Part shown: piece by piece, positions 4,492-46,165 of the stretch
Layout: each line of letters starts with the position of its first letter
How positions within the stretch are numbered: position 1 is the first letter of the stretch
IMG/VR virus record: IMGVR_UViG_3300031413_000624
Strand: one strand, 5' to 3'
Origin: a virus
Length of the DNA: 64,000 nucleotides
Notes under the pieces: generated by a model
Database searches by the model: none
What the model was told of the DNA's origin: nothing
What the model saw: only the letters and a program-made list of their open reading frames with translations
Translations under genes and position numbers: made by a program

Positions 4492-4527
4492 GAAGGCGGT
4501 AACAGCGTGATGTTGTTACCGCCTTCA
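4492..4527. terminator. bidirectional hairpin terminator
   Basis: gaaggcggtaacagc / tgttaccgccttc stem. Confidence 0.55.
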
Positions 4528-4532
4528 ACTAT

Positions 4533-5021
4533 TTAATACTCAGTGCGAGTTGTGCTTTCTTTCCACACATTGAAAGGACTTACAGCATTTTCAATTCTCA
4601 GATGCTCAGCAACATCTCCAGCTGCAAGCTTCTCGTAAAACGTTGCGTCATCAAAGCCAGCATCAGCTGCATCATGGCGGTCAGCAGCGAACACAATGCG
4701 GTCAACACGTGACCACAATGCAGCGCCTAAGCACATGGGACATGGCTCACAGGAAGAGTACAGAATGCATCCTTCCAGACTAAACGTTTCCAACTGACGG
4801 CATGCTTCACGAATAGTATTCACTTCTGCATGCGCAGTCGGGTCATTCGTTGTCGTAACTGAATTACCGCAAGCGATTACTTTGCCAGACGGAGTGACAA
4901 TAACTGCTCCGAACGGCCCACCATTACCTGAATAGACGTTATCCATTGCGGTACGAATAGCAAGCTGGATGTAGTAACCATCGTAGTCGTCATTCATTGT
5001 CATCACTCTCCACTTTGCCAT
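4533..5021 (-). CDS. CMP/dCMP-type zinc deaminase (TadA/cytidine deaminase-like)
   Basis: HAEVNTIREA ... SCEPCPMC zinc-binding motifs (H-A-E, PC-x2-C). Confidence 0.75.
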   Translation of the reverse strand: MAKWRVMTMNDDYDGYYIQLAIRTAMDNVYSGNGGPFGAVIVTPSGKVIACGNSVTTTNDPTAHAEVNTIREACRQLETFSLEGCILYSSCEPCPMCLGAALWSRVDRIVFAADRHDAADAGFDDATFYEKLAAGDVAEHLRIENAVSPFNVWKESTTRTEY

Positions 5022-6120
5022 TCAGGTTCCAGAAAGGCTTTTCAAACTCAGGCTGGATAAGCTTCCAGATGCTGTCAGAAATCTTCTTCTCAGAAGACTC
5101 ATTGTAGTGACCACCGCTATGACGGCTGAACAGCATACCTACAAGCTTCTTATCCTGCTGCTGCACTGCAAAAGCATAGTCCTTCTGAGTGAAGTCATCA
5201 GGAAGAGAGGTAATTACGCTGTTATACGTGTTCTCTACTTCCTCACGCAGAGCAGCGAACTCTGCCAGAAGGTTGTCACGGGTGCGCTCAACGAAGTCAA
5301 TGAACTCCTCAGGAAGGTCCTTCAACCAGCTGTCAAAGTCGTTACCACTGACAAGCATCTCCCAGATACGACGTGAAGATGCGCCAGTGATGATGCGATG
5401 AAGCTGAACGTAGTCGGCCTGCTTAATCTTCACACGAGTGTCAGTGTTCAGGAAGTGCACAACCATACCCTCAGCGTTCTCACGCGGAGTTGCAGTAAGC
5501 GCCTCAGCAAGGTTCGTGTACTGGAACTGCTCAACCTTGTTCCACTTCCACTCATCAATCTGGGATGCAGGCTCGCTGACACCAGTCTCAATGTTTACAC
5601 GGGCAATCAGGATAAGGTCATCCATCTCACCGTAGTTCAGCACAATACGGTTGGTCGGGTAGATAATCTCCCAAATGTACGTGTAGCCCTCAGCAGGCTC
5701 CCACTGACCGTCATACAGCTCCAAGTAACGCGCCGTTGCATGCTGAGCCTGCTCAGAAGCAAAGGAACCACGAGTGGAGATGTTCAGCGTGCCATCAGGA
5801 GTGCGGTAAGAGATACCCATGCTACCGTCAGCCTTATCGGAGACAATAGCAGGACCAGTCAGAAGAGCCTGGTCAACATCAGGCTCGTTGTGGTTGAAGA
5901 ACTTACCCAGAGGACGGGAAACAATTTCCTTTGTCTCAGCGTCGACAATAAGACCACGTGCTGCCAAAGTTGCAGGGTTCCAAGCGCGCTCAAACTGAGC
6001 GACCTGTGAGTAGTCGTAAATCTCCAACGGCAGAGTAGGGTGTACCTGCTTATTGATGTGCTTTGCCGCGAATGCTGCATCCCACATTTCCTTCGGAGCA
6101 ATGTCATAAATAGTTGACAT
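4990..6120 (-). CDS. RNA ligase family protein (paralog A)
   Basis: KxDG nucleotidyltransferase motif I (VSDKADGSMGISY); about 45% identical by eye to the 16133..17371 product. Confidence 0.7.
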   Translation of the reverse strand: MSTIYDIAPKEMWDAAFAAKHINKQVHPTLPLEIYDYSQVAQFERAWNPATLAARGLIVDAETKEIVSRPLGKFFNHNEPDVDQALLTGPAIVSDKADGSMGISYRTPDGTLNISTRGSFASEQAQHATARYLELYDGQWEPAEGYTYIWEIIYPTNRIVLNYGEMDDLILIARVNIETGVSEPASQIDEWKWNKVEQFQYTNLAEALTATPRENAEGMVVHFLNTDTRVKIKQADYVQLHRIITGASSRRIWEMLVSGNDFDSWLKDLPEEFIDFVERTRDNLLAEFAALREEVENTYNSVITSLPDDFTQKDYAFAVQQQDKKLVGMLFSRHSGGHYNESSEKKISDSIWKLIQPEFEKPFWNLNGKVESDDNE

Positions 6121-6260
6121 GGAAAATCGTTACTTTCTGTGCTTCTTCAATGGATCAATTCGTACTGATAATAGCAGATATAAGCATCTTCGTCAACTGG
6201 TAGGAGGTCTTTCCTGCTTTGACAATGCCTGAACTGATATACTTTAGTAGCAGTAGTGAT

Positions 6261-6303
6261 GTGACAATATTGTCACATTGGCCTCATGCAACAATATTGT
6301 CAC
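6261..6303. promoter_or_regulatory. pair of palindromic operator-like sites
   Basis: Perfect 16-bp palindrome GTGACAATATTGTCAC (6261-6276) and repeat ACAATATTGTCAC (6291-6303) in a divergent intergenic region. Confidence 0.5.
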
Positions 6304-6327
6304 TTGCAACCTATTGGAAAGGCTATC

Positions 6328-6819
6328 ATGTCCTTAGCAGAAGATGAACGAACACAACGATCCCGCGAAGCTGCCAGAGAGCGTTCTCGAGCGAAATCGA
6401 TAAAGTTTGCAAAGATGAATGCAGAGGCTCGTCGTCTTTCGCAGGAAATGCCAGAAGAAGGATTACCTCTCAGTATTTGGGCAGAAGAAATCAAACGGCG
6501 TTCAGGAGAACACGAGTACATTCTTCACATCCTTCATAATCTTGAAGGGGAAGTTCATTACTCTTTGTCTAATGTTACAAGACTTCCAGGCTTGCAAAGC
6601 GCAGACCCTCAGTATCTTTCAGAATACACGCCTTACTCCATCCCTAAGAGTGTTGAACTTGACGAAGAAGTACTACGCCAGTACAATAAGTGGTCAATAC
6701 TGAATACTCAGCGTGCATATGCTACACAAGCTTACATCCAGTCACAGCTTGATTCAGGAAACGAGATTCTCGTACGTAAGCCTGACGGAACAGTCGAAGT
6801 AGTTGGATTTTCTTCATGA
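6328..6819 (+). CDS. hypothetical protein
   Basis: ORF; GGAAAGG RBS before the ATG at 6328. Confidence 0.45.
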   Translation: MSLAEDERTQRSREAARERSRAKSIKFAKMNAEARRLSQEMPEEGLPLSIWAEEIKRRSGEHEYILHILHNLEGEVHYSLSNVTRLPGLQSADPQYLSEYTPYSIPKSVELDEEVLRQYNKWSILNTQRAYATQAYIQSQLDSGNEILVRKPDGTVEVVGFSS

Positions 6820-7172
6820 ATGAACCAACAACATTAACATTATGGAGACCTGTTGGTCCAAAAGAGTTAGCTCTCATTGCTCAATCAGGTTACCAAGAAT
6901 TTCCGCCTCGCTTACCAGACCAACCTATCTTCTACCCTGTTCTCAATGAGGATTATGCAAGGAAGATAGCTTCAGGTTGGAACGCTAAATATGATGGTGG
7001 CGGGTTCGTAACGCAGTTCCAGGTGGAAAAACGCTTCATTGACCGCTACAAGGTCCAGCAGGTTGGCGGAGCAACAATTTTGGAATACTGGATACCTACT
7101 GAAGACTTAGATGACTTCAACGAACATATCGTCGGATTCATTGAAGTCATCGCTGAATACCCTTCGGTTTAA
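6816..7172 (+). CDS. hypothetical protein (118 aa)
   Basis: ATGA start/stop overlap with the upstream gene. Confidence 0.5.
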   Translation: MNEPTTLTLWRPVGPKELALIAQSGYQEFPPRLPDQPIFYPVLNEDYARKIASGWNAKYDGGGFVTQFQVEKRFIDRYKVQQVGGATILEYWIPTEDLDDFNEHIVGFIEVIAEYPSV

Positions 7173-7174
7173 AG

Positions 7175-7193
7175 TTGAGCTGAGTCCACTCAA
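7175..7193. promoter_or_regulatory. HAIR-like inverted repeat (HspR operator-type) upstream of dnaK
   Basis: TTGAGC-tgagtcc-ACTCAA matches the actinobacterial CTTGAGT-N7-ACTCAAG consensus. Confidence 0.5.
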
Positions 7194-7196
7194 CTA

Positions 7197-7213
7197 TTTT
7201 TCGTCAAAATGAC
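7197..7213. promoter_or_regulatory. TTTTTCGTCA-N3-TGAC operator-like motif (copy 1)
   Basis: tttttcgtcaaaatgac; same motif recurs at 25069 and 56233. Confidence 0.45.
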
Positions 7214-7271
7214 CTCTATTGAAAAAATGGTGTATGCTGTCATCATAAGTTCAACGAAAGGGTAACATAAA

Positions 7272-9125
7272 ATGGCTCGTACAATTGGTATCGACCTTGG
7301 AACCACAAACTCAGCTGCTGCAATCCTTGAAGGTGGAGAAGCGACAGTCATTGCAAACGCGGAAGGTGTTCGCACCACCCCATCCATTGTCGCATTCACA
7401 AAAGATGGTGACACGCTCGTCGGTGAAACCGCAAAACGTCAGGCAGTCACCAACGTTGACCGCACCATCCGCTCTGTAAAGCGCCACATGGGTACCACTT
7501 GGTCAACCACCATTGAGGGTAAGAAGTACACTGCTCAGGAAATCTCTGCCCGTATCCTCATGAAGCTCAAAAAAGATGCAGAGACTTACCTTGGTGAAGA
7601 TGTTGACTCCGCTGTCATCACCGTTCCTGCCTACTTCAATGACGCGGAGCGTCAGGCAACCAAAGAAGCTGGTGAGATTGCTGGACTAAAAGTTCTCCGT
7701 ATCGTCAATGAGCCTACCGCCGCAGCAATTGCATACGGTCTTGACAAGGTAAAAGAGTCCGAAACTGTTCTCATCTACGACCTCGGTGGTGGAACCTTCG
7801 ACGTGTCCCTTCTTGACATTGACAAAGACTCTGATGACGGCTTCGCAACCATTGAGGTACGTGCAACCGCAGGTGATAACCGACTCGGTGGCGATGACTG
7901 GGACAAGGCCCTGGTTGATTACATCAACGAGCAGTTCAAGGCTGCTTCTGGTGTTGACATCACAGGTGACAAGATTGCTCAGCAGCGTATCCGCGAGGGT
8001 GCAGAGCAGGCTAAGAAAGAGCTTTCCAGCGGTAGCAGCACAAGCGTTCAGCTCCCGTATATCTCTCTCACCTCTGAGGGTCCTCTGAACTTGGATGTTA
8101 CTATTACCCGTGCGAAGTTTGAAGAGTTGACCAAACCTCTCCTTGACCGCACTAAGAAGCCATTTGAGCAGGTTCTTGCCGATGCTGGTATTACCACAAG
8201 TGACATTGCGAACGTTATTCTTGTTGGTGGTTCAACTCGTATGCCTGCTGTTGTTGACCTGGTGAAGTCTTTGACAGGCAAGCAGCCCTCCCAGAATGTG
8301 AACCCTGATGAGGTTGTTGCTCTCGGTGCAGCTGTTCAGGCTGGTGTTGTGACTGGTGAGCGTAAGGATATCCTCCTGATTGACGTTACCCCGCTGTCTC
8401 TTGGTTTGGAGACTGCGGGTGGAGTTATGACGAAGCTCATTGAGCGGAACACTGCTATTCCCACTAAGCGGAGTGAGACCTTCACTACTGCGGTTGATAA
8501 CCAGCCGTCTGTTGCTGTTCAGGTCTTCCAGGGTGAGCGTGAGTTTACTCGTGATAACAAGAAGCTCGGTCAGTTTGAGTTGACAGGTATCGCTCCTGCT
8601 CCTCGTGGCCTTCCTCAGATTGAGGTAACTTTCGACATTGACGCAAACGGTATCGTTCACGTCTCTGCGAAGGATAAGGGTACTGGCCGCGAGCAGAAGA
8701 TTACCATCACAGGTGGTTCTTCCCTTTCCCAGGCTGACATCGACCGTATGGTCCGTGACGCTGAGGAGCACGCTGCTGAGGACAAGGCTAAGCGTGAGTC
8801 CCAGGACCTTCGCAACCAGGCTGAGCAGTTGACCTACTCTGCTGAGAAGGTTCTTGTGGACTACGCTGACCAGGTTCCTGCTGATGTCAAAGAAGAAGTA
8901 ACCAATGATATCAACGCTTTGAAGAAGGCTTTGAACGAGGGTTCTGATGATGATGTGAAAGCTGCTGTGGAGCGTTTGAACCAGTCTCAGCAGAAGGTTG
9001 GTCAGAGCGTCTACGGTAACCAGGCACAGGCTGACTCAGCCCCTTCTGAGGAAGCTAACCAGGCTCCTGCTGGTGGTAGCGAGGATGAAGATGTTGTTGA
9101 CGCAGAAATTGTTGACGAGGACTAA
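7272..9125 (+). CDS. dnaK: molecular chaperone DnaK (Hsp70)
   Basis: [16 protein letters not shown] and other Hsp70 signatures; strongly actinobacterial-like N-terminus; 617 aa. Confidence 0.95.
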
Positions 9126-9136
9126 AATTTTGTAAT

Positions 9137-9177
9137 CAAAGAAGCGGCAACCCTGGAACTGGGTTGCCGCTTCTTTG
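9137..9177. terminator. bidirectional intrinsic terminator
   Basis: Perfect 17-bp stem caaagaagcggcaaccc / gggttgccgcttctttg. Confidence 0.7.
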
Positions 9178-9178
9178 A

Positions 9179-9568
9179 TTAATGACTTTGTAACTGCTCT
9201 AAAAGCTCAGGAACCATAAGGTGATGATAATGCAAGGGGTAGACATCAATTCGTTCATCTAAACGTATGAACTGCTTTGTGTGAAGAACCTTTGCTGGAT
9301 TTTTATATGGATTGATAATACCTTTAGTGTACTTGATTATTAAAGGTCGTTGCTGAACGTCAACGTATCCTGCATATTTTTGTTTATCATAAACAACTAC
9401 TTCATTTGTCCATCTATCGTGAACCATTGGCGAATACAGGATGGTTGCATAGTATGCTTCTTTATCTACAAAGAAAACAAGAAGCTCATGTGTTTCAGGC
9501 AACCATTCAAAATCGCTAATAACAGGATTGTAAAACATGCCTAAGTAATCGGTTGCACTTTGGACCAT
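9179..9568 (-). CDS. hypothetical protein (129 aa)
   Basis: ORF flanked by terminators. Confidence 0.45.
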   Translation of the reverse strand: MVQSATDYLGMFYNPVISDFEWLPETHELLVFFVDKEAYYATILYSPMVHDRWTNEVVVYDKQKYAGYVDVQQRPLIIKYTKGIINPYKNPAKVLHTKQFIRLDERIDVYPLHYHHLMVPELLEQLQSH

Positions 9569-9579
9569 TGTGAGCTACA

Positions 9580-10023
9580 ATGATCCTTATGGCTGATCTA
9601 ACCACGTCGAAATATTCTCGTTTTGTTCTCCCTGCTGTCGCTGAGAACATTGAGAAGCTTCTGAATCTCCGGTTTACTGATGAAGACGAGGATGAGTATT
9701 CTCTCGCTGATATGGCTGACCCTGTGAAAGCATCAGGGCATTGCTACGATTCAGCATTGCTAGTTCAGCAATCAGGTCTTGTATTTAACGATGGTCCTAC
9801 TGGTGAGATTCTGAGGGTCATTCCTGAGGGAGAAAATGACCCTGACGGTTGGTGGCATGCAGCGTTCTCTGTGCCAGACCATATCGGGGAGGATATTGTG
9901 TATGATTTCACTATGCGCCAGTTCCACCCTGACCTCCCGTTCCCCTATGTAGGGTTCGCTGACCAGTGGGCTAGCACTATTGAAAAATACGCAGGTCGTG
10001 GCCCTGTTGAGTTTCTTTGGTAG
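9580..10023 (+). CDS. hypothetical protein
   Basis: ORF. Confidence 0.45.
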   Translation: MILMADLTTSKYSRFVLPAVAENIEKLLNLRFTDEDEDEYSLADMADPVKASGHCYDSALLVQQSGLVFNDGPTGEILRVIPEGENDPDGWWHAAFSVPDHIGEDIVYDFTMRQFHPDLPFPYVGFADQWASTIEKYAGRGPVEFLW

Positions 10024-10056
10024 TATTACGAATGATTAAGAAAGAAGTGAATAATA

Positions 10057-10521
10057 ATGGTTGAAACACCTGTCCTCAAACTGGGTAACGAATTTGATGT
10101 ACGTGATTTACAGAAGAAGGTGGCTGAGCTGCGTACAATTATGGTTGAAAGCGTTGAGACTCCTGATGATGTTCGTTTACAGTTGCTGATTCTGAATGCT
10201 GGGTTGGAAAACTTCTTAGAAGGCGAATACGCCGCGGAAGAACCTTCCCGTGACCGTGATGAGGAAATTCGGTTTGCAGATGAAATCAGTGCAGGCTTTG
10301 CTGCTGTGGGAGATAACTATGATGTGAAGTTCATTCACTCATCTATGGTAGAAGAGGTTCTCCAAGAGCAGGCTGCATCTATGGGTTTCTTGGATTCTCT
10401 TCCAGATGTTATTGCGGATGCCATTGACTGGGATAAAGTTGCTGATGTTGCAGCAGCCTCCGAGGATGTTCAGGAAATGTTCATTGATACAGAAGTGTAC
10501 ATTTGTAACCTGTACCTGTGA
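10057..10521 (+). CDS. acidic hypothetical protein
   Basis: ORF. Confidence 0.45.
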   Translation: MVETPVLKLGNEFDVRDLQKKVAELRTIMVESVETPDDVRLQLLILNAGLENFLEGEYAAEEPSRDRDEEIRFADEISAGFAAVGDNYDVKFIHSSMVEEVLQEQAASMGFLDSLPDVIADAIDWDKVADVAAASEDVQEMFIDTEVYICNLYL

Positions 10522-10525
10522 TAAT

Positions 10526-10535
10526 CCGATAGAAT
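10526..10535 (+). promoter_or_regulatory. CCGATAGAAT -10-like promoter element (leaderless rnhA)
   Basis: TAGAAT at 10530-10535, ATG at 10542 (6-nt gap). Confidence 0.45.
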
Positions 10536-10541
10536 TCTCTC

Positions 10542-11066
10542 ATGAGCAACAAATTAGTTATCGCCTGTGATGGTTCGTGTTTGAAGAACCCTGGCGGTGA
10601 AATTGGATGGGCTTGGGCTGACAATAAAGGTCGTTGGCAATCTAACGGTGCAGCCACTGGTTCTAACCAGAAAGCTGAGCTGTTAGGTTTACTGTCAGTC
10701 TTCTATGCTTTCCCAAATACTAGCATGCATATCCAACTGGATTCTCAGTATGTGTTGAATATCGCAACTAAATGGATGTTCACATGGAAGAAAAACGGTT
10801 GGTATCGTGATGCTGAGAAAACGCAGGTTGTGAGTAACCTCAACTATGTCCAAGCTATCTATGAGGCGCTTCGTGTTCGGAAGCAGAAGAAGCTTGTCAC
10901 TACGTTTGAATGGGTCAAAGGCCACGCTTCAAACGGTTTGAACAACATAGCTGACAAGGAAGCCCAGGCTGCTGCTCGCCGTATAAAAGCAAGTAAACCA
11001 GGGTATGCGGACTCTGCAAAGAACACTTCCTCAGAACGCCAAAACAGAATGCTTGAATCCTTGTGA
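10542..11066 (+). CDS. rnhA: ribonuclease H (RNase HI family)
   Basis: IACDGSCLKNPGG... RNase H catalytic N-terminus; DEDD-type fold motifs. Confidence 0.8.
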   Translation: MSNKLVIACDGSCLKNPGGEIGWAWADNKGRWQSNGAATGSNQKAELLGLLSVFYAFPNTSMHIQLDSQYVLNIATKWMFTWKKNGWYRDAEKTQVVSNLNYVQAIYEALRVRKQKKLVTTFEWVKGHASNGLNNIADKEAQAAARRIKASKPGYADSAKNTSSERQNRMLESL

Positions 11067-11860
11067 ATTCTACAATCGTATCCTACAACATTCAAATCCC
11101 AGCAGCAAAAGAGGAGCTACATCCTTGGGCTGGGAGAAAGCATGAAGTGCTGGAATGCTTACCTCTTCTTGGCGACCTCATAGGTTTACAAGAAGTAGAT
11201 TACAATACTTCACAAGGACGTGAAGTATCTGAACGTCTCGCGGAGGCTGGATTTAGTAGTTTTCAACCAGGATACGGTGATTCAGAGTACACGGATGAGT
11301 ACCATACTCGTATTCCTGTGTTTTGGAAGAAAGAGCATTTCAAACTGATTCGCCAGGAAGTGCGAATGCTGACAACAGGAACAGTTGAGCAGCAAAAGTT
11401 GCTACCAAACATTGAAGCTCGGTATACTACATATGTACAGCTTGAATGCAAAGGGACACCGTTGCATTTCTTCAACCTGCATCAACAGCATGTCCCTATG
11501 GAGCTGTCCGATCAGAAACTTATTACAGGGTATCAAGCTGTCCAAAGTGCAGGGCTTCAATCCTTACATGACTTCATTCGGGAACTCAATCCAAATGGGG
11601 ATAGAACATTCGTTGTTGGTGACTTCAACGCTACTGATCCTCATGTGAATGGTTATCAAGACGCTTACCGTGTTGCACAGCATACTGAGCATTCAGAATA
11701 CAACAGCTACCATGGATATCAACCAAGCGGCGGCAGCGAAGGCGGGTACATCATCGACCATGTGCTTACAAACCTCACTCAGGCGAACGTGTTGAATGCT
11801 GAGACACTTATACAAGAAAGAGGCAGTGACCACTACCCGATAAGAGTCACCGTTACCTGA
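11063..11860 (+). CDS. endonuclease/exonuclease/phosphatase (EEP) family protein
   Basis: C-terminal SDHYPIRV motif typical of the EEP fold; ATGA overlap with rnhA. Confidence 0.7.
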   Translation: MNSTIVSYNIQIPAAKEELHPWAGRKHEVLECLPLLGDLIGLQEVDYNTSQGREVSERLAEAGFSSFQPGYGDSEYTDEYHTRIPVFWKKEHFKLIRQEVRMLTTGTVEQQKLLPNIEARYTTYVQLECKGTPLHFFNLHQQHVPMELSDQKLITGYQAVQSAGLQSLHDFIRELNPNGDRTFVVGDFNATDPHVNGYQDAYRVAQHTEHSEYNSYHGYQPSGGSEGGYIIDHVLTNLTQANVLNAETLIQERGSDHYPIRVTVT

Positions 11861-11905
11861 AAATATGGTAGGCTTACTCGTTCAACTTACCTTTGTATTG
11901 GAATC

Positions 11906-12601
11906 ATGAGAATCGTCGTCGCATCCTGCTCTGTCATCTACACCGGCCGTGGAGATACTAAACTCCCGCAAGCCGTGCGAGCTATCATCCTCAAAGATGA
12001 CGGATGTATCTCAATCCATAATGATAAGAGCAACAAGCCGCTGAATTACATGGGTAAAGGCAACGTTCACACTGAAACAAAGAACGGTGAAATTACGATG
12101 TGGACATTTGACACTCGTAAAGAGAGTCTACAAATTACCATGCATGAAGTTCTCTCAGACACCAGCTTTGAGATTGACTTGAATGACGCTGGTTTGATCC
12201 GTGACGGCACAGAAAAGCATTTGCAGGCATGGTTGGCAGAACACCCTGAAAGCCTCGGAGAAGGCTTTACATTCGTTGCCCGTGAGCATCAGACAGGTGC
12301 AGGGCCTGTGGACTTACTGCTTGCTGACAAAGATGACAACCTTATCGCTGTTGAAGTGAAACGAATTGCAATGACAGCTTCCGTAGACCAGATTCGTCGT
12401 TATGTTGAAGCGTTGCAGCAGGACGGTATGGAGAATGTCCGTGGAATGATTGCAGCTTTGGATGTTCGTCCAAATACAGTCAAAATGGCTGAAAGACGCG
12501 GCATTGACTGGGCTATTATCCCAACCTACTGGCGTGAAACTGCCTTCATTAATGAAGAAGCAGAATCCGACGAATCAGATTCTGCTTCTTCCGACGAGTA
12601 A
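11906..12601 (+). CDS. nucS: NucS/EndoMS-like endonuclease
   Basis: RIVVASCSVIYTGRGDT N-terminal domain and GPVDLLLAD...AVEVKR RecB-like nuclease motif; 231 aa. Confidence 0.7.
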   Translation: MRIVVASCSVIYTGRGDTKLPQAVRAIILKDDGCISIHNDKSNKPLNYMGKGNVHTETKNGEITMWTFDTRKESLQITMHEVLSDTSFEIDLNDAGLIRDGTEKHLQAWLAEHPESLGEGFTFVAREHQTGAGPVDLLLADKDDNLIAVEVKRIAMTASVDQIRRYVEALQQDGMENVRGMIAALDVRPNTVKMAERRGIDWAIIPTYWRETAFINEEAESDESDSASSDE

Positions 12602-12602
12602 A

Positions 12603-13187
12603 TTACATCGTATTGTCAGGATTCTTTAAATCTTGAGGAGCTACCTTGTATGCATACTCGCTGTTCGCTGATAGGTAGTAGACATACTCTACGTTTTTGT
12701 CTTTCGGATCAGTGACAAGAATGTAATGCCTGCGAGCATCCACATCAAGGTAGCCTGCGGTATCCATGATTTCTTTAGCCTCAGTGTCAGTAAGATTTAG
12801 GTATTCATAATGCTTGTGGAACCAGTTCAGATAGTTGTTCTGAACAGCTTCCACTCGCATCTGAGGCTGCACGAAAGCAATTTGCGTGAAGCTAACAACT
12901 GCGCCAACAACTAAAAGGGCGGCTCCACCAAAAGAAATCAGCGCAGGGATACGACGAAACGCAGGTAGAGCTAACCCGAGAATGAGCAGAGCCAGTGGAA
13001 TGGCGAAAAGCCAGTAGTTGAAATCCTCTAAACCTGTCGGATTGGATGGTACATGCCAACCATTGAGGTCAGAGAGTTTGATTTCGTTGTTCATAACGTG
13101 TAGGATTCCTTTTGTGTTTCTGTTCGCAACTTGACCATTGAACTTTCCTATGGTACCCTGTTTTAGTAAATGAGTAAGGAAAATCAT
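12603..13187 (-). CDS. membrane protein (194 aa)
   Basis: ORF with two TM segments. Confidence 0.4.
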   Translation of the reverse strand: MIFLTHLLKQGTIGKFNGQVANRNTKGILHVMNNEIKLSDLNGWHVPSNPTGLEDFNYWLFAIPLALLILGLALPAFRRIPALISFGGAALLVVGAVVSFTQIAFVQPQMRVEAVQNNYLNWFHKHYEYLNLTDTEAKEIMDTAGYLDVDARRHYILVTDPKDKNVEYVYYLSANSEYAYKVAPQDLKNPDNTM

Positions 13188-14088
13188 GTCTCAGCATATT
13201 AAAGTGTTACGCGGTGTTCAGGGTTCTGGTAAATCAACTGAAGCCTTGAAGTGGGTTCGTCAGGACCCTCTGAATCGCGCCCGCGTGAACCGAGATGACA
13301 TCCGTTTGACTAACTTCGGCTCATATGACCTTCCTCAGGAGTTGGAGTATGCTGTTACGAAGATTGAACATCAGCTGATTCGTACACTGTTGAAGGCGAA
13401 GAAGAGCGTTGTTGTTGACAACGTGAACTTGCGTGCAAAGTACGTGAAAGAGTACTTGCTGATTGCTGATGAGTTCAATGTTCCTGTTCTGTATCAGGAT
13501 TTTCCTGTGGAGCTGGAAGTTGCATTAGCTCGTAATGCTGCTCGTGAGCGTAAGGTGCCTGAGGATGTTATTGTCAAGACTCATAAGCGATACATCCAGA
13601 GAGGTAAGTTCCCTGAGTTCCCTCAGCTGAATTACGACATGTCTGGGCTGTACGTTCCCGATGAGACCCTCCCGAAGGCTATCCTGTTGGATGTTGATGG
13701 CACGGCTATGAAGATTGGCAAGCACCGCGGCCCTTATGATTTCGATAAGGTCATTGATGATGAGCCGAACTTCCCTGTCATTACCACTGTGCAGTCCCTT
13801 GTCGCACATGAAGGCTATAAGGTGATTGTCATGTCAGGTCGTGATGAGATTTGCAAGCAAGATACTCTATTCTCTTTGGAAGTTGCAGGTGTTCCTGTTG
13901 ATGAAATCTACATGCGTCCTCAGGGTGACCGCCGCCCTGATACTGTTATCAAGCGTGAGCTGTTTGATGCGAATGTTCGCAACCGTTTTAACGTGTTGTT
14001 CGCACTTGATGACAGAGATGTTGTGATTGACATGTATAGAAAAGACTTGGGCTTGACTGTTTTCCAGGTTGATTACGGGAACTTCTAA
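13186..14088 (+). CDS. polynucleotide 5'-kinase/3'-phosphatase (Pnkp paralog A)
   Basis: P-loop GVQGSGKST in the N-terminal kinase half; HAD phosphatase motif LLDVDGT in the C-terminal half. Confidence 0.8.
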   Translation: MSQHIKVLRGVQGSGKSTEALKWVRQDPLNRARVNRDDIRLTNFGSYDLPQELEYAVTKIEHQLIRTLLKAKKSVVVDNVNLRAKYVKEYLLIADEFNVPVLYQDFPVELEVALARNAARERKVPEDVIVKTHKRYIQRGKFPEFPQLNYDMSGLYVPDETLPKAILLDVDGTAMKIGKHRGPYDFDKVIDDEPNFPVITTVQSLVAHEGYKVIVMSGRDEICKQDTLFSLEVAGVPVDEIYMRPQGDRRPDTVIKRELFDANVRNRFNVLFALDDRDVVIDMYRKDLGLTVFQVDYGNF

Positions 14089-14099
14089 ATCAGTACAGA

Positions 14100-14158
14100 T
14101 AATGCCAGCATAGGAGACGTTTGACTTTCGTCAGATTGTCTGTTATGCTGGCATTATC
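14100..14158. repeat. 15-bp inverted repeat with 32-nt spacer
   Basis: gataatgccagcata ... tatgctggcattatc downstream of pnkp. Confidence 0.4.
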
Positions 14159-14178
14159 AATTAAACGCAACTATGTGA

Positions 14179-14394
14179 ATGGATGAAGGTTTCATGCCTG
14201 GAATGATGGCTTCCAACAAGAACCGTGCTGTTAACCACGTTGATGGCGCTATGTTCGATGATGGTTTCTGGCAGCACCGCCGCTTCAAGGGTAAGCGCAA
14301 GGCTGGCGCTCCTACTGGTAGTCGTGGTTGGCGACGTGTTCTCCGCGCCAAGGAGAAGGCCGCTACTCGTCGTGACATCGCTGACAACAGCTGA
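14179..14394 (+). CDS. small basic protein (71 aa), uncertain
   Basis: ORF on the dominant strand; overlapping alternative frames. Confidence 0.2.
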   Translation: MDEGFMPGMMASNKNRAVNHVDGAMFDDGFWQHRRFKGKRKAGAPTGSRGWRRVLRAKEKAATRRDIADNS

Positions 14395-14522
14395 TTTCAA
14401 AATACCTTATTTTCCCTGGTCAGAATGGGTTTAAGTACTCCATTTTATTGTAAAATGTCAGTACTTCATGATACAATTATGTAGTAACAAACACACAAAC
14501 AGACAACGTTGGAGATAGTATT

Positions 14523-15407
14523 ATGAGTTTAGGTTTTCGTTCTGAGGTGCATTACGATGCAAAGAAAGATACAACCTTCCTGACATCAGATTCGCCTGAT
14601 TTCAGCAGTCAGCTGAGGGTTGATTTCACTCGCGGTTCAGAGCAGGACGCAGGTGTCCGTTCGTTTCTTGAAGACCAGGGTGAGGTTTCCTTTATCCGTG
14701 ACACAGTGCGACTCAGCACTATTGGTCGCGCAGGTCAGTTTGGTGTGCTGGGTGACGGTACTGAGTCGGATTCCACCACTGATACAATCAAGAATCTTTT
14801 CCTCGTGGGGAAAGAAGGTTCAGGTATTATGAACCTTGTCCGTAACTATCTTCTGCGTGCGCTTGTAAACCAGGCAAATGTCTACGCTGTCAATGCTCCT
14901 GGTGACTTTTACGGAGCAAAAGAGTACTTTGACATGGATGAAGATGTCATTCTCATCAACTCTGATACACAGACTAACTGGACTGATATCAAAGAATGGA
15001 TTGAAGCTGACCTGGAAGATAATGAAGAGGTGCTGATTCTGGTTCGTCAGAACAAGCATTGGGACAGGCTTTCGTCGGAAGCTCAGACATTCTTCAGTAC
15101 TCTGGAAAGTCACCCTAACCTCCGCATTCTGACGTTCTCAACTGAGGTTGATTACAGTATTTTGTCAGATGAAAATGTAGGCGACCAGTTCTGGTTTATT
15201 GGTTCAGGCGTTTTCTTGGAAGAGCGTGTTGTAGGTTTCATTGGAAGCGTTGAGGAGTACATTGCTAAGTACCTCATGCGTGACCGCACTGATATTCCCC
15301 ATGAGAATTCACGAGGAGTATTGTGGTTGAGCCGCGCCGATGATGATTACGAACGTATTGTTACGTACATGGTTCCTCGCACGATGTGGACTGTGGCTAT
15401 TCAGTAA
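14523..15407 (+). CDS. hypothetical protein (294 aa)
   Basis: ORF. Confidence 0.5.
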   Translation: MSLGFRSEVHYDAKKDTTFLTSDSPDFSSQLRVDFTRGSEQDAGVRSFLEDQGEVSFIRDTVRLSTIGRAGQFGVLGDGTESDSTTDTIKNLFLVGKEGSGIMNLVRNYLLRALVNQANVYAVNAPGDFYGAKEYFDMDEDVILINSDTQTNWTDIKEWIEADLEDNEEVLILVRQNKHWDRLSSEAQTFFSTLESHPNLRILTFSTEVDYSILSDENVGDQFWFIGSGVFLEERVVGFIGSVEEYIAKYLMRDRTDIPHENSRGVLWLSRADDDYERIVTYMVPRTMWTVAIQ

Positions 15408-16074
15408 TTGAAGCAAGGCGTTGAAGGAGTTCAGGTTTGTTCACATTTGTGAAACCTGAACTCCTTTGCGTTTCCCAGATATGATTCAGCTTTTCTACCA
15501 CTGTTGCAGTTGGAATATGGGTTTTATTCAGAAGAAGGTAATTCGTGTTGGCGCTTCGACCTTCTCCACCAAGTCCTGCTTTACCCGCATTTCGCCCTGT
15601 TCGCTGTACAAAGAAATCCGGGTGAGTGGTGCAAAACTGGAACCCTTTTGCGATGGTTATAGATGCAACAGAGCGAACAATTTCCTGATATGACCATAGC
15701 TGAAAAATTCGCTTATCATACTGCCATGTTTGAGTAAGATGCAGTTGCGGATGGACTTTCCCTAATAGCGAAGGGCGGTCAAAAGCTAACGGTAGGAGGA
15801 AAGCTACTGCATCAGCGAAACTGGCAGCATGTCTAAAATACTTGATCGTTGTATGGTGATGTGGAAGCTTTGGTGGTTCACCTAACACCAACGTTTTCAT
15901 TACTCCTCTTTCCCAGGAGCTTCGGAGAAAATCAAGGGGTTCAGGTACCCAGATTGTAGCACCTGGGAACAAAGGAGTAACTGGGCTAATGTCAATAATG
16001 CGATCGTAGTCTGCAATGTGAATACGACTGAGACCTTCTGCTGGGTCCCATTGCTCAATGGGTTGTGGGTTCAT
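15397..16074 (-). CDS. hypothetical protein
   Basis: Start moved to the internal Met with AAGGA RBS. Confidence 0.4.
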   Translation of the reverse strand: MNPQPIEQWDPAEGLSRIHIADYDRIIDISPVTPLFPGATIWVPEPLDFLRSSWERGVMKTLVLGEPPKLPHHHTTIKYFRHAASFADAVAFLLPLAFDRPSLLGKVHPQLHLTQTWQYDKRIFQLWSYQEIVRSVASITIAKGFQFCTTHPDFFVQRTGRNAGKAGLGGEGRSANTNYLLLNKTHIPTATVVEKLNHIWETQRSSGFTNVNKPELLQRLASITE

Positions 16075-16132
16075 CGTTTCGTATCCTTTTTCACATGCGT
16101 TTCGTAACTTCTTCTTCGTTAGATATATCAGC

Positions 16133-17371
16133 ATGACTACCACTCGTAAACCACCTTATTTGCATGCTGACGGTTCAAATTGTTGGACAAAGCATTGCTC
16201 CCGCCGCACCAAGGAAAGCAATGATCGTGCTTCCTTCTTCAAGCAGGTTGAAAAGACCCCAGCTGCGAAGCTTCCTACCAACCTTCCTCCACTGTCAGCG
16301 TTCCAGAAAGCTCACGCTGAGGGCCGTATTGAGAAGTCTGAACACCCAAATTACCCTTACGTGACCTACAAATACGCGCGTACTACGCAGTTCGCTTCTG
16401 ACTGGGATGATGTCACACTTGCTTCTCGTGGAATCATCTTTAACAAGGAAACCGGAGAAGTTGTTGCACGTCCATTTGCAAAGTTCTTCAACTACAATGA
16501 ACCTTCCGTGCCTACTGATAAACTTCATGGTCGTGTGAGCGTCACTGACAAACTTGACGGTTCATTAGGTATTGGTTACGTTGATGAGGACGGTAAGTTC
16601 AACATTGCTACTTCTGGTAGCTTTATCTCTGAACAGTCTAAACATGCTACTCGCATATACCAAGAGAAGTACGAAGGTAAATGGAATCCAAATCCAAACA
16701 TGACATACATGTGGGAAATTATTTACCCTGAGAACCGTGTTGTTGTCAACTATGGTGATGAGGATGACTTACACCTTATTGGTGCTGTCAATAAGCGCAC
16801 GGGTAAGAGCGTCCCATTAGGTGATATCAAAGAGTGGAAGTGGAAGCGTGCAGAAGAGTACAAAAACATTTCTTCTCTTGACTCTGTGCTTGCCACTCCT
16901 GACCGTGAGAACCGTGAAGGTTTCATTGTCCACTACATTGATACTGACACTCGCGTAAAGTACAAGCATGAGCAGTACTTGAACATTCACCGTGTTGCTA
17001 CTGGTGTTACTTCTAAGACTATCTGGCGTAAGATGTCTTTGGGTGAAGATATGGACAGCTGGAAGAGTGGAATTCCTGAGGAGTTCACTGACTTCATTTC
17101 TGAACGTCAGAACAAAATCCGCGCAAACTACGATAATGAAGTCAGCAAAGTTGTTGCTGACCACGCAAAGTTCAAAGCTTCTATGCCTGCTTCATATGAA
17201 CGTAAAGACTTCGCTGTTACATTGAAGAATTCTTCTGTAGTTCCAGCTGAGAATAAACCATTCATCATGAATTATGAATTCAACGGTAAAGTAGCAACAA
17301 ACGAGGTGCAAGCTCGTAAAATTTGGGAGCGCATCAAGCCTACCGATGAGGATACTTTCTGGAACATGTAA
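16133..17371 (+). CDS. RNA ligase family protein (paralog B) with N-terminal Cys-His motif
   Basis: KLDGS motif I; paralog of 4990..6120. Start MTTTRK.. chosen by analogy with MTTTRE.. of the 38971 gene; NCWTKHC motif. Confidence 0.65.
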   Translation: MTTTRKPPYLHADGSNCWTKHCSRRTKESNDRASFFKQVEKTPAAKLPTNLPPLSAFQKAHAEGRIEKSEHPNYPYVTYKYARTTQFASDWDDVTLASRGIIFNKETGEVVARPFAKFFNYNEPSVPTDKLHGRVSVTDKLDGSLGIGYVDEDGKFNIATSGSFISEQSKHATRIYQEKYEGKWNPNPNMTYMWEIIYPENRVVVNYGDEDDLHLIGAVNKRTGKSVPLGDIKEWKWKRAEEYKNISSLDSVLATPDRENREGFIVHYIDTDTRVKYKHEQYLNIHRVATGVTSKTIWRKMSLGEDMDSWKSGIPEEFTDFISERQNKIRANYDNEVSKVVADHAKFKASMPASYERKDFAVTLKNSSVVPAENKPFIMNYEFNGKVATNEVQARKIWERIKPTDEDTFWNM

Positions 17372-17372
17372 A

Positions 17373-17657
17373 TCATCGGTGAAGTAGGTAGTACGCTGCT
17401 AAAACGATAATTCCAATAGCATTCAAAGACATCAGCCCGTATCCAATGTATTTCGCTGGACGGGCTGATGTCTTTTGGTATGACCAGCTGGATAGCGTTA
17501 TGAGAAGAGCCATCAGGAAGCCCGCTCCGCTGATGATCCATTCCTGGGTAGAGAATCCTACAATGGTGAAGAAAAGAAGCGCATCAGCGTAGAGGAAGCT
17601 TACCCAGTATAAGGTTCTGTCAGGTTTGACTGTTTCTACTTCCTTTACTGTATTCAT
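17373..17657 (-). CDS. small membrane protein, uncertain
   Basis: ORF with TM helices; contains an internal hairpin at 17427-17475. Confidence 0.3.
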   Translation of the reverse strand: MNTVKEVETVKPDRTLYWVSFLYADALLFFTIVGFSTQEWIISGAGFLMALLITLSSWSYQKTSARPAKYIGYGLMSLNAIGIIVLAAYYLLHR

Positions 17658-17695: not shown

Positions 17696-17716
17696 TTATC
17701 GTCGTTATGACGATAA
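17696..17716. promoter_or_regulatory. palindromic operator-like site TTATCGTC-N5-GACGATAA
   Basis: Perfect 8-bp arms; a TAGAAT hexamer 7 nt downstream (17723-17728); start of the NAD operon. Confidence 0.45.
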
Positions 17717-17763
17717 ACATGTTAGAATATCCTCAGAAGATAATAACAAAGGACACCTTCCTC

Positions 17764-18717
17764 ATGAAAGTATACAACGACACAGTTGTAATGACTGACT
17801 CCCTGATCCGCATGCTTGATGGATATCGCGCTGAACGAGGTTTTAACGCCTCAGAATGGGTTGAGCGTAAAGTTGCTCTCATCAACGCTTACTTCGCGCA
17901 GAGCGGCCTGTCAGGGGCTGTTGTAGGGGTTTCAGGAGGTATTGACTCCGCTGTTGCTCTTTCTCTTGTCGTGAAAGCATCACAGGTGGAAGACAGTCCA
18001 ATCAAGAAGATTGTTCCGATTCTTCTCCCCGCATTTTCCTACACAGGAGCTACCCGTCAGAACGAAGCTACAAACCGAGCAGAAAGCCTGTGCACAAAAC
18101 TTGGACTCGAAGCAGTCATCTTCCATCAGCTCACACCAATGGCTGAAATGATGAATGCAGAATTAGAGAACGTTTTGGGAATTCGGGCAACCCCTTGGGC
18201 TAAAGGCCAGTTAGTTGCATACACCCGAACCCCAATCCTGTACAGCACCTGCTCCATTCTCACGGACGCAGGATATCCAGCCTTAGTCATTGGAACTACA
18301 AATCTGTCAGAAGGTGGATACTTAGGTTATGTCGGTAAAGCCGCTGATGGCATGGTTGACTTACAGGTAGTGAGTGACTTGTACAAATCAGAAGTGTACC
18401 AAGTTGCGGAACTGCTAGAAGTACCAAACCTCATTATGAAAGCAACGCCAACAGGAGACATGTTTGACGGTCGGGATGACGAAACAGTGTTCGGAGCTTC
18501 CTACGACTTCGTGGAACTCTATCACCTCTGGCTGCAAAATGGCTCCGACCCTGAACTTCTGAAAGATGAAACATTCGCAGCAGGAGCGGCGAACCTTGAA
18601 AAGATGCACGCTTACAATGGTCATAAATATCTGTACGGTACACCATCAGTTCATTTGGATATCCTTCGTGCAGACATTCCTGGTGGTTGGAATAACAAAG
18701 CTTGGAGCGCTAAATAA
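17764..18717 (+). CDS. PP-loop ATP pyrophosphatase (NadE-like)
   Basis: SGGIDSAV PP-loop motif; AAAGGA RBS before 17764. Confidence 0.6.
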   Translation: MKVYNDTVVMTDSLIRMLDGYRAERGFNASEWVERKVALINAYFAQSGLSGAVVGVSGGIDSAVALSLVVKASQVEDSPIKKIVPILLPAFSYTGATRQNEATNRAESLCTKLGLEAVIFHQLTPMAEMMNAELENVLGIRATPWAKGQLVAYTRTPILYSTCSILTDAGYPALVIGTTNLSEGGYLGYVGKAADGMVDLQVVSDLYKSEVYQVAELLEVPNLIMKATPTGDMFDGRDDETVFGASYDFVELYHLWLQNGSDPELLKDETFAAGAANLEKMHAYNGHKYLYGTPSVHLDILRADIPGGWNNKAWSAK

Positions 18718-19457
18718 TGGCGACCAAATTTGTCAACCAAATTGACTTCACTATTCCAGCTATCCAACATGAAGTTGAAGTGGAGCCACTTCCTGAGTTA
18801 GACCGTTCAGCAGTGGTTATCCCTAACCTTATCCCAAGCAAAGAACGAGTTCATATCCTCCAAGAACTCAGTAAAGCGAACTGGCAGCCAGTATCCATCA
18901 CTGGAATGTCAGGTAACTGGAAGCCAGGGGATGAAATTGGGTCTTACCGAGCCTCAAACTACACACCAGAATACGCCACTGTATTATGGGACAGAATCAA
19001 ACACGCTTTCCCAACGGTTCGAGTGTTCAATCAGGAAGACAATACTGATTTTGATGACCATGAACTCTGGGAACCTGTTGGAGTTTCTCCACTGCTTCGT
19101 TTCATCAAATACGAAGATGGAGGCTGGCTTGTTGTTCACTATGACGCTCCATATGTTGAAGATGAGGACACTAGGACACTACAAAGCTTTGTTATCTACT
19201 TAGAACAGAGTCCCACGATTGCAGGTGGAGCAACTCGATACCTGCGAGACCCGCAAGCAGGGATTCCTATTGCTCAACGTATTTTAGATGACCAGAAACG
19301 TGCAGCAACCGAGGATGAAGTCCGGCTTCGTTTCACCCCTGAAAATGGAACAGGTGTCATCTTTGACCACAGACTTCTTCACGATGCTGCGCTCGTTCAG
19401 GGCGAAGGTCACAAAATTATTATCCGTACCGACATTATGTACAGGAAAGTCCGATGA
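18717..19457 (+). CDS. 2OG-Fe(II) oxygenase superfamily protein
   Basis: HYDAP (HxD) ... DHRLLH facial-triad arrangement; start/stop overlap with neighbours. Confidence 0.5.
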   Translation: MATKFVNQIDFTIPAIQHEVEVEPLPELDRSAVVIPNLIPSKERVHILQELSKANWQPVSITGMSGNWKPGDEIGSYRASNYTPEYATVLWDRIKHAFPTVRVFNQEDNTDFDDHELWEPVGVSPLLRFIKYEDGGWLVVHYDAPYVEDEDTRTLQSFVIYLEQSPTIAGGATRYLRDPQAGIPIAQRILDDQKRAATEDEVRLRFTPENGTGVIFDHRLLHDAALVQGEGHKIIIRTDIMYRKVR

Positions 19458-25128: not shown

Positions 25129-25974
25129 ATGACCACTTTACAGAAGCACATCATTGAAACCCTCGGAGTGAAAGCGAAAGTCAACCCAGAGGAAGAGTTC
25201 CGCACTCGTGTAGACTTCCTCAAAGCTTTCACTAAAAATGCAGGAACACGTGGATTCGTCCTCGGGATCAGTGGAGGGCAGGATAGTGCTCTGGCTGGAT
25301 ACGTTGCTCAGACAGCTGTTCGTGAACTCCGTGATGAAACAGGCAAAGACTATGAATTCCTTGCCCTGCTCCTTCCATACGGTACACAGCGGGACGGGGA
25401 TGAAGCAGTAACCATCGCAAAAGACTTTATCAAAGCCGACCAGGTAATTGAATACAACATCAAAGACACTGTAGACGCTTTCGCAAACACCTTCAACACT
25501 ATTGCAGATGCTGACCCTGCAAACGGTGACAACCTTGCCGACTACCACAAAGGTAACGTCAAAGCACGTGTTCGCGCCATCACACAGTACGCATATGCTG
25601 GACAGCGACAGCTTCTGGTTGTTGGGACCGACCATGCAGCAGAAGCTGTCAGCGGCTTTTTCACGAAGTTCGGAGATGGTGCTGCTGACATTCTCCCTCT
25701 TAGCGGTTTGAACAAACGCCAGGGAAAAGAAGTGCTTCGCTTCCTGGGTGCTCCTGAGTTTGTTATCACTAAGGCTCCTACTGCTGACCTTTTGGACACT
25801 AACGCAGGTCAGGCTGATGAGACTGAACTTGGCATCACCTACGATGTGCTGGATGACTACCTTGAAGGCAAGACTGTCGCAGAAGCTGCTCAGCAGAAGA
25901 TTGAACTTCGTTACCTGGTGACTGAACACAAGCGTCAGCAGCCTGTTGACCCTTTTGCTGACTGGTGGAAGTAA
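25129..25974 (+). CDS. nadE: NH3-dependent NAD+ synthetase
   Basis: [12 protein letters not shown]-loop; length and overall pattern of NadE. Confidence 0.85.
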
Positions 25975-46066: not shown

Positions 46067-46082
46067 AGTTGCTGTGTGAAAA

Positions 46083-46120
46083 GAACCCCTTAGCCAGAGC
46101 TAAGGGGTTCTTTTCTTCTT
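46083..46120 (+). terminator. intrinsic terminator with T-tract
   Basis: gaacccctta...taaggggttc followed by ttttcttctttt. Confidence 0.7.
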
Positions 46121-46165
46121 TTACTACTGATAGTATATAGATGGGACATAGAAGAAGGAAACCCA

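Follow-up and report, generated by a model that had tools for sequence, protein, structure and literature searches.

The 64,000-nucleotide stretch of DNA considered here, hereafter the window, is IMG/VR virus record IMGVR_UViG_3300031413_000624 and corresponds, in reversed orientation, to approximately 349.5-413.5 kb of an 878,479-bp metagenomic contig (ENA ERZ27247405 k141_830180). It encodes two RNA ligases of the Rnl1 family, LigA and LigB, and two T4-type polynucleotide 5'-kinase/3'-phosphatases, Pnkp1 and Pnkp2, together with a stand-alone ligase, Lig3, and a homolog of CCA-adding tRNA nucleotidyltransferases. T4-style tRNA repair is a textbook phage counter to anticodon nucleases. The explanation favored for this gene set, and held with moderate confidence, is that a giant phage-like genome encodes two complete, active T4-style sets of enzymes for RNA healing and sealing. 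Loci in relatives are designated by L-numbers (among them L006, L008, L010, L157, L161 and L163) and related proteins by P-numbers.

LigA (4990-6120, minus strand, 376 amino acids) is an ATP-dependent RNA ligase of a plain type, and LigB (16133-17371, plus strand) has 412 amino acids. Both match Pfam family PF09511, RNA_lig_T4_1 (58.2 bits for LigA and 57.5 bits for LigB, against a gathering cutoff of 28.3), as well as PHROG 562, the family of T4 gp63/Rnl1 (E 3e-69 and 4e-61, respectively). The two proteins are 41% identical over approximately 367 amino acids of their catalytic and C-terminal regions (E 6e-103). Their active sites were compared in a table of 124 Rnl1-family sequences aligned with the T4 Rnl1 segment (2c5u) taken from the PDB alignment. 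Across this set the equivalents of T4 R54, K75, K99, D101, G102, E159, E227, G228, K240 and K242 are invariant and that of F77 nearly so (122 F, 2 W), and both ligases have the consensus residue at every one of these positions. The catalytic set of LigA comprises K96, D98 and G99 of motif I (KADG), E151, E217-G218 and K231/K233; that of LigB is likewise intact, with K140, D142 and G143, E195, E262-G263 and K276/K278. Residues of the N-terminal subdomain specific to Rnl1 are also kept (R55, K73 and F75 in LigA; R99, K117 and F119 in LigB), and R54 and K75 are described as essential in T4 Rnl1 (PMC6379707). At motif Ia, represented by K119 in T4, LigA carries R117, and Arg is found in 104 of the 124 homologs.

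The similarity of the two ligases to Rnl1 extends into the C-terminal domain. The alignment to PHROG 562 reaches profile position 368 of 377 in LigA and 361 in LigB, and the alignment to the NCBIfam model TIGR02308, built for T4 RnlA equivalogs, reaches positions 359 and 329 of 373. An AlphaFold2 (AF2) model of LigB, with a predicted local distance difference test score (pLDDT) of 91, places a helical C-domain at residues 280-400. The top PDB match of this model is T4 Rnl1 itself (2c5u, E 1.5e-16, 387 columns), followed by fungal Trl1-LIG and archaeal Rnl3; DNA ligases rank much lower. The TM-score between the model and T4 Rnl1 is only 0.51-0.56, which indicates that LigB differs from T4 Rnl1 in domain orientation or in detail. 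The reading frame of LigB opens at 16058, and the likely start is at 16133, since this position yields the N-terminus conserved in the clade and avoids an oppositely oriented upstream gene. Starting there, LigB has an N-terminal extension of approximately 45 amino acids with a conserved PY-H-DG-NCWTK-C motif (clade consensus APYRHxDGSNCWTKNCSR). LigA and LigB fall into separate clades of a group that is known only from metagenomes and stands apart from the Rnl1 homologs encoded in the chromosomes of Actinomycetota such as Dactylosporangium, and the LigB clade is an undescribed, metagenome-only subclade. A strict screen for positions distinguishing the two clades returned two minor positions only. 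A deep relative of the LigA clade, located on a 695-kb contig, is accompanied by a further type of ligase matching PHA02142 and PF09414 (L162 14518-15101); ligase repertoires evidently vary across the lineage.

Pnkp1 (13186-14088, plus strand, 300 amino acids) and Pnkp2 (34439-35482, plus strand, 347 amino acids) each combine an AAA_33 kinase domain with a HAD_PNKP phosphatase domain and belong to PHROG 505 (E 9e-85 for Pnkp1). The HAD_PNKP scores are 149 bits for Pnkp1 and 73 bits for Pnkp2, against a cutoff of 27.6, and the two proteins are 33% identical to each other (E 2e-49). In the PDB, Pnkp1 matches the bacterial Pnkp1 of 4xrp (E 1e-40) and T4 Pnkp 1ltq (E 1.5e-28), both over the full length, and Pnkp2 matches the same two structures (E 7e-29 and 1e-24). 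Both enzymes keep the equivalents of T4 K15, S16, D35, R38, R126, D165, D167, R213, D254, K258 and D277/D278, where D35 is the general base, D165 the nucleophile, D167 the acid-base residue and D278 the Mg ligand (PMC3592404). In Pnkp1 the kinase residues are K16, S17, D37, R40 and R120, and the phosphatase residues are D169, D171, S217, R219, K256 and D275-D276. The corresponding sets in Pnkp2 are K15, S16, D36, R39 and R118, and D165, D167, T227, R229, K266 and D284-D285. The equivalent of T4 S211 is therefore Ser in Pnkp1 and Thr in Pnkp2, and T4 R176 aligns to F190 of Pnkp2, inside a clade-specific insert where the alignment is uncertain.

The clade of Pnkp2 comprises at least 90 clusters and, like that of LigB, is an undescribed subclade known only from metagenomes. 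Its features were read from the invariant columns of an alignment of 30 sequences: members have in common an insert in the HAD domain (FHRxS) and an invariant C-terminal tail of the form C-x2-C-G...G-P-x-C, which in Pnkp2 is C325-x2-C328-G...G339-P-x-C342. The tail gives a weak match to DUF6011 (E 0.012), below the cutoff. Short Cys-rich motifs occur at the ends of several unrelated enzymes of the window: the N-terminus of LigB (16133-16210), the C-terminus of Pnkp2 (35411-35482), and the N-termini of two GNATs (48197-48290 and 57848-57950) and of the CCA-adding enzyme (46166-46230). A KC...C-DP-CP motif is found on the two GNATs and also on P0043, a member of the LigB clade. Zinc binding, targeting and assembly are candidate roles for these terminal motifs.

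The initial annotation had proposed, from the sequence alone, two kinase-phosphatase genes (at 13186 and 34439), each with a kinase and a HAD half, and two RNA ligase genes with KxDG motifs (at 4990 on the minus strand and 16133 on the plus strand), and it had described the members of each pair as diverged. The domain matches and pairwise identities given above, with E-values far outside the range expected by chance, agree with it on all these points. It had also set two checks beforehand, namely whether the paralogs are inactive duplicates with a substituted catalytic Lys or Asp, and whether the ligases are DNA ligases. The paralogs keep the catalytic Lys and Asp along with the other essential residues, and a DNA ligase identity is ruled out by the Rnl1 family matches, by the residue table and by the fold search with LigB.

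Beyond what had been proposed initially, the region 45458-47605 encodes a third ligase together with a CCA-adding enzyme. Lig3 (45458-46066, plus strand, 202 amino acids) is a ligase of the Rnl2-like nucleotidyltransferase-domain type (PF09414, E 1.7e-10; PHROG 548). Its motifs K21-L-D-G (K21, D23, G24), R43 (motif Ia), E86, E159-G160 and K177/K179 do not vary across 42 homologs. The match to PHROG 548 extends over profile positions 29-241 of 341 only, and Lig3 lacks the C-terminal domain of Rnl2, which is required for nick recognition. The AF2 model (pLDDT 95) ends with two short helices after motif V, and its top PDB matches in a fold search are T4 Rnl2 (2hvr/1s68, E ~1e-8), the trypanosome editing ligase TbREL1 and NgrRnl; a sequence search of the PDB with Lig3 returned no relative. 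The family, of approximately 203 amino acids and 55-77% identity, is found on the same giant contigs. The CCA-adding enzyme homolog (46166-47605, plus strand, 479 amino acids) starts 100 nt downstream of Lig3 and consists of a PolyA_pol head domain and an RNA-binding domain. Its best NCBIfam model is CCA tRNA nucleotidyltransferase (E 1e-49, below the equivalog cutoff), and it matches PHROG 2244, tRNA nucleotidyltransferase, with E 1e-58. No RtcB, Hen1, RlaP, 2H or KptA component was found among the window's open reading frames (ORFs) scanned.

These genes are maintained in relatives. A sibling genome, at approximately 70-77% amino acid identity, retains LigA (L157), Pnkp1 and LigB (L006), Pnkp2 (P0122) and Lig3 (P0249). 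Its block of DnaK, RNase H, EEP, NucS, Pnkp1 and LigB has the same order as in the window, and the LigB ortholog in L006 is syntenic and 72% identical. A closer relative, L163, is 93-97% identical. LigA and Pnkp1 are under purifying selection, with ratios of nonsynonymous to synonymous substitution (dN/dS) of 0.059 for LigA against its 93% ortholog in L163 and 0.016 for Pnkp1 against the same relative; for LigB the ratio is about 0.05 with dS saturated, and against the 70-75% orthologs in general dS is saturated and the ratios are unreliable, with no value obtained for Pnkp1 against L006. The neighborhoods in other relatives point to a pairing of the enzymes. In L008 a Pnkp1-type gene divergently adjoins a LigA-type gene, while in L010 a Pnkp2-type gene divergently adjoins a LigB-type gene, with a Lig3-type gene two genes off, and in L161 a Pnkp2-type gene lies 3.4 kb upstream of a LigB-type gene. 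This gene order suggests two cognate healing-sealing sets: a plain one of Pnkp1 and LigA, and a decorated one of Pnkp2 and LigB, which clusters with Lig3 in relatives.

Several neighboring genes deserve mention. Between Pnkp1 and LigB lies a gene for a conserved 294-amino acid protein (14523-15407, plus strand) with no Pfam or PHROG match; a 42%-identical ortholog is found directly upstream of the LigB ortholog in L006, and the protein is a possible accessory candidate. In the window a gene on the opposite strand (15397-16143, 225-248 amino acids, PHROG 5172) sits between it and LigB. Like the 294-amino acid protein, other neighbors matched no Pfam or PHROG family. A YgjV-like inner-membrane gene is located directly upstream of LigB-type genes in two distant relatives (L160 6427-6957 and L161 6308-6934), and the window has its own YgjV-like gene (36398-37117) 0.9 kb from Pnkp2. 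This placement looks like a remnant of an ancestral order of Pnkp2, YgjV and LigB.

Beside LigA lies a CDA-fold zinc deaminase (PF00383; 4533-4997 within an ORF of 4533-5021, minus strand, 154-162 amino acids). Its likely start is at 4997, which gives an 8-nt overlap with the LigA stop codon in ATGAATGA. The gene had been labeled TadA-like, an identity that did not survive closer comparison: the match to the B. subtilis guanine deaminase GuaD (PDB 1wkq/1tiy) has E 1.7e-40 and spans residues 17-162, whereas the best TadA match in the PDB has E 8e-21 and spans residues 15-114 only, and the score against the NCBIfam TadA equivalog NF008113 is 67.2 bits, against a cutoff of 150. The TadA identity is ruled out by this stronger, full-length GuaD match and by the failed equivalog cutoff. 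The alignment to 1wkq covers both zinc motifs (HAE in HAEV, PCxxC in CEPCPMC), the AGFDD segment and the C-terminal segment specific to GuaD, up to the terminal EY. Judged by these matches, the protein is classed as a homolog of the Bacillus-type guanine deaminases. It differs from B. subtilis GuaD in its setting, a phage-like element in which its gene overlaps that of an RNA ligase, and its function is predicted by homology. The gene is under constraint (dN/dS 0.024 against L163). Its position beside LigA, which had also been pointed out, is real in the window and recurs in close relatives alone (L163); the 71% sibling (L157) has approximately 2.9 kb between the two genes, and no deaminase accompanies the 69% LigA ortholog in L008.

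Genes related to NAD are dense in the window. They comprise two diverged NAD synthases, an NMNAT-like cytidylyltransferase, an isochorismatase/PncA-like protein and several ADP-ribosyltransferases, recorded at 17707-18717, 25129-25974, 19454-20965, 57192-57779 and 32385-33293; the coordinates given for the set also include L001 16168-20609, and a WGR-PARP gene lies just beyond the window edge. The set fits the repertoires for NAD synthesis and for countering NAD depletion reported from jumbo phages and adds one more function present in duplicate. No tRNA genes were found in the window by ARAGORN and nothing by Rfam at gathering thresholds, and consequently no tRNA or RNA substrate or partner could be proposed from it. 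A promoter/terminator scan remained at chance level (19 found against 17.9 expected, and 17 against 11.6), so that transcription units were not definable. A relative (L160, on a 532-kb contig, with a contig of approximately 1.0 Mb recorded for the same protein) has a tRNA with the anticodon CTA, of the amber-suppressor type, and a tRNA-Leu(TAA), at 9620-9693 and 10467-10549, 1.3-2.2 kb downstream of its LigB-type gene. The CTA-anticodon tRNA may point to stop-codon recoding in the lineage.

The replicon itself is unusual. The Rnl1, Pnkp2 and Lig3 clades recur on contigs of 0.3-1.0 Mb (for example, 696, 725, 788, 885, 980 and 1000 kb). Phage-like features are mixed in this lineage with genes for replication, chaperones, transporters and pilus-like structures: the contig and its relatives encode DnaK, ClpB, GyrA/B, DnaG, DnaB, RecA, MFS transporters, type IV pilin-like proteins and a T2SSE ATPase. 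The giant phage-like genome is probably associated with Actinomycetota. The Pnkp2 clade is absent among the matches listed from 185,579 GTDB species genomes, of which the best full-length one is 33-34% identical. A scan of IMG/VR with the Pnkp2 alignment returned stand-alone HAD phosphatases only, with no full-length Pnkp2, a scan of the same database with the single LigA protein returned no relatives, and a megablast search of positions 4500-17400 against 50,697 phage records gave no match. Literature searches turned up no description of actinophage-like genomes of megabase scale. To our knowledge, the largest known phage genome is approximately 735 kb, a size that contigs of this lineage would exceed if they are viral. 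The source lineage may matter more than the enzyme duplication itself.

By analogy with T4, each set would act in a fixed sequence of reactions. The HAD domain of a Pnkp would remove a cyclic or 3' phosphate through an aspartyl-phosphate intermediate, its P-loop domain would phosphorylate the 5'-OH, and the Rnl1-type ligase would join the resulting 3'-OH and 5'-PO4 ends by way of ligase-AMP and AppRNA as intermediates. Restoration of 3' ends could fall to the CCA-adding enzyme encoded beside Lig3. The two sets probably serve the repair of RNA cut by ribotoxins, and probably in non-redundant ways; tRNA would be the expected substrate, with a role in counter-defense and a division of labor between the sets. 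They are ancient paralogs and not recent copies, and their age, their placement in distinct clades and their different appended motifs fit non-redundant roles. Two diverged, constrained pairs, together with Lig3 and the CCA-adding enzyme, would amount to a natural experiment on the specialization of RNA repair against different ribotoxins, in which the LigB and Pnkp2 clades can be compared directly with conventional paralogs of the same genome.

Several observations weigh against this explanation. Neither ligase approaches the cutoff of TIGR02308 (79.4 bits for LigA and 68.6 for LigB, against 242); by these scores they would be classed as members of the Rnl1 family and not as T4 equivalogs. 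At motif Ia, LigB has Ser161, without a basic side chain, and 19 of the 20 sequences in its clade show Ala or Ser there. In related ligases the basic side chain of this motif engages the RNA 5'-phosphate (PMC6379707), and without it the chemistry or the partners of LigB may differ. Because Ala or Ser is common to the clade, the change would reflect a functional difference at the level of the clade and not a private lesion. K119 of T4 Rnl1 is reportedly needed for step 2, a finding attributed to Wang et al. in 2003. The pairing seen in relatives is blurred in the window, where LigB lies 2 kb downstream of Pnkp1, LigA is 7 kb away from Pnkp1, and Pnkp2 and Lig3 are scattered. RNase H, an EEP nuclease/phosphatase, NucS and a small membrane ORF of 194 amino acids (10542-13187) directly precede Pnkp1, in an order kept in L006 and L163, and this block could point to DNA-end processing instead. 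Finally, the phage nature of the replicon is itself only putative.

Duplication without specialization is an unlikely alternative, though the most probable of those considered: the two sets might be back-ups, or might be distinguished only by when or where they operate (early versus late, or delivered with the virion versus expressed), and act on the same RNA breaks. All catalytic residues are common to both sets, other functions of the genome also occur in two copies (NAD synthases and GNATs), and the short terminal Cys motifs of LigB and Pnkp2 could be tags for targeting or assembly and not determinants of substrate. Selection for functional back-ups has also been noted in the literature on jumbo phages (PMC7824862). 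Against such redundancy stand the deep divergence of the pairs (41% and 33%), the clade-specific changes at the substrate-contacting motif Ia and in the HAD domain, and the persistence of both clades in many distant relatives. A separate reading, in which each pair contains one inactive copy in decay, is effectively refuted. Only the change from Lys/Arg to Ser at motif Ia of LigB speaks in its favor, and that change is a conserved feature of the clade; none of the ORFs is truncated, the catalytic residues do not vary, and dN/dS is 0.02-0.06 where measurable.

It is less probable that one Pnkp, most plausibly Pnkp1, works mainly in the processing and repair of DNA ends, which would leave only one true RNA repair set. 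DNA ends are also substrates of T4-type Pnkp, and the eukaryotic PNKP functions in DNA repair; to this is added the conserved RNase H/EEP/NucS/membrane ORF block in which Pnkp1 lies. However, no DNA ligase was found in that block, the Pnkp1-type gene adjoins an RNA ligase of the LigA type in L008 and stands close to LigB in the window, and the closest cultured homologs of Pnkp1 sit beside RNA ligases in actinophages. Very unlikely is the view that the replicon is not a virus but an unusual cell or a giant plasmid-like element, with the enzymes serving endogenous RNA repair or processing in the manner of the bacterial Pnkp1-Rnl-Hen1 system. The size of the 878-kb contig and of relatives up to 1.0 Mb, the cell-like gene content listed above and the top PDB match of both Pnkps, the bacterial Pnkp1 of that complex, are consistent with it. 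On the opposite side, the Pnkp2 clade is missing among the matches listed from the GTDB genomes, most neighboring genes lack a Pfam assignment and many of them are very short, several genes have PHROG matches, the best cultured homologs are in large actinophages, and no Hen1 is present among the window ORFs scanned.

A bolder extension of the favored explanation is also conceivable, and is rated as rather improbable. According to it, LigB, Pnkp2 and Lig3 would form an undescribed three-component RNA repair machine beside the conventional Pnkp1/LigA pair, in a phage-like lineage of 0.7-1.0 Mb. Having lost the basic side chain at motif Ia that serves in RNA 5'-adenylylation, LigB would depend for part of the reaction on Lig3 or Pnkp2, and the Cys/His motifs would mediate zinc-dependent assembly or RNA targeting.

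The rarity of the arrangement was assessed by tblastn of LigA, Pnkp1 and Pnkp2 against the same 50,697 phage records. LigA matched 1703 records, Pnkp1 2347 and Pnkp2 2614, with one matching place in every record; in a control with GyrA, the same search does report several places per record. Two Rnl1 loci or two T4-type Pnkp loci were thus found in none of the 50,697 records, and literature searches turned up no phage described as having Rnl1 or Pnkp in duplicate. Among cultured phages, the closest homologs come from Streptomyces phages (such as TunaTartare, LukeCage and Tomas) and Arthrobacter phages (Bauer and Seahorse), in which the RNA ligase and Pnkp genes are neighbors. These homologs are 40-46% identical in amino acid sequence to LigA and Pnkp1, and the ligase gene is separated from the kinase gene by no more than 1-2 kb. 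In contrast to the window, each of these actinophages has a single ligase and a single Pnkp in a genome of 50-135 kb, and none has a Pnkp2-type protein above 37% identity.

Among characterized systems, the Pnkp1-Rnl-Hen1 complex of Capnocytophaga gingivalis (4xrp/4xru) provides the top structure match of both Pnkps over their full length; unlike that complex, the window has no detected Hen1 methyltransferase and its ligases are of the Rnl1 type. The Pnkp and Rnl1 (gp63) of T4, whose repair pathway counters the anticodon nuclease PrrC, have the same architecture. They are established tRNA repair enzymes, and the C-domain of Rnl1 confers tRNA specificity (PMC6379707, PMC3592404). Like T4 Pnkp, the window enzymes join a P-loop kinase to a DxDxT HAD phosphatase, and like T4 Rnl1, the ligases have the Rnl1-specific N-subdomain, the nucleotidyltransferase core and the helical C-domain. 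All experimentally defined catalytic residues of T4 are conserved, except the motif Ia Lys in LigB. The differences lie in the two diverged copies of each enzyme, at approximately 18-25% identity to the T4 proteins, and in the lack of the motif Ia Lys and the N-terminal Cys/His motif of LigB and the HAD insert and Cys tail of Pnkp2.

Jumbo phages resemble this genome in that a single, very large genome holds several ligases, a CCA-adding enzyme and healing enzymes of the PNK-HAD type. Iyer et al. (2021) describe several ligases in such phages, including three Rnl2 paralogs in Xanthomonas phage XacN1 and RtcB together with Rnl1 and Rnl2 in BcepSauron and BcepSaruman, and read them as non-redundant, each directed against different RNase effectors (PMC7824862). 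That ligase paralogs may be specialized for damage by different RNases has already been proposed for jumbo phages; the idea is not new. What differs here is that Rnl1 is the duplicated family, and that it is duplicated along with Pnkp. Placed among these systems, the finding is an unusually large version of the known repair kit for cut tRNA, with undescribed enzyme subclades, rather than a new kind of system.

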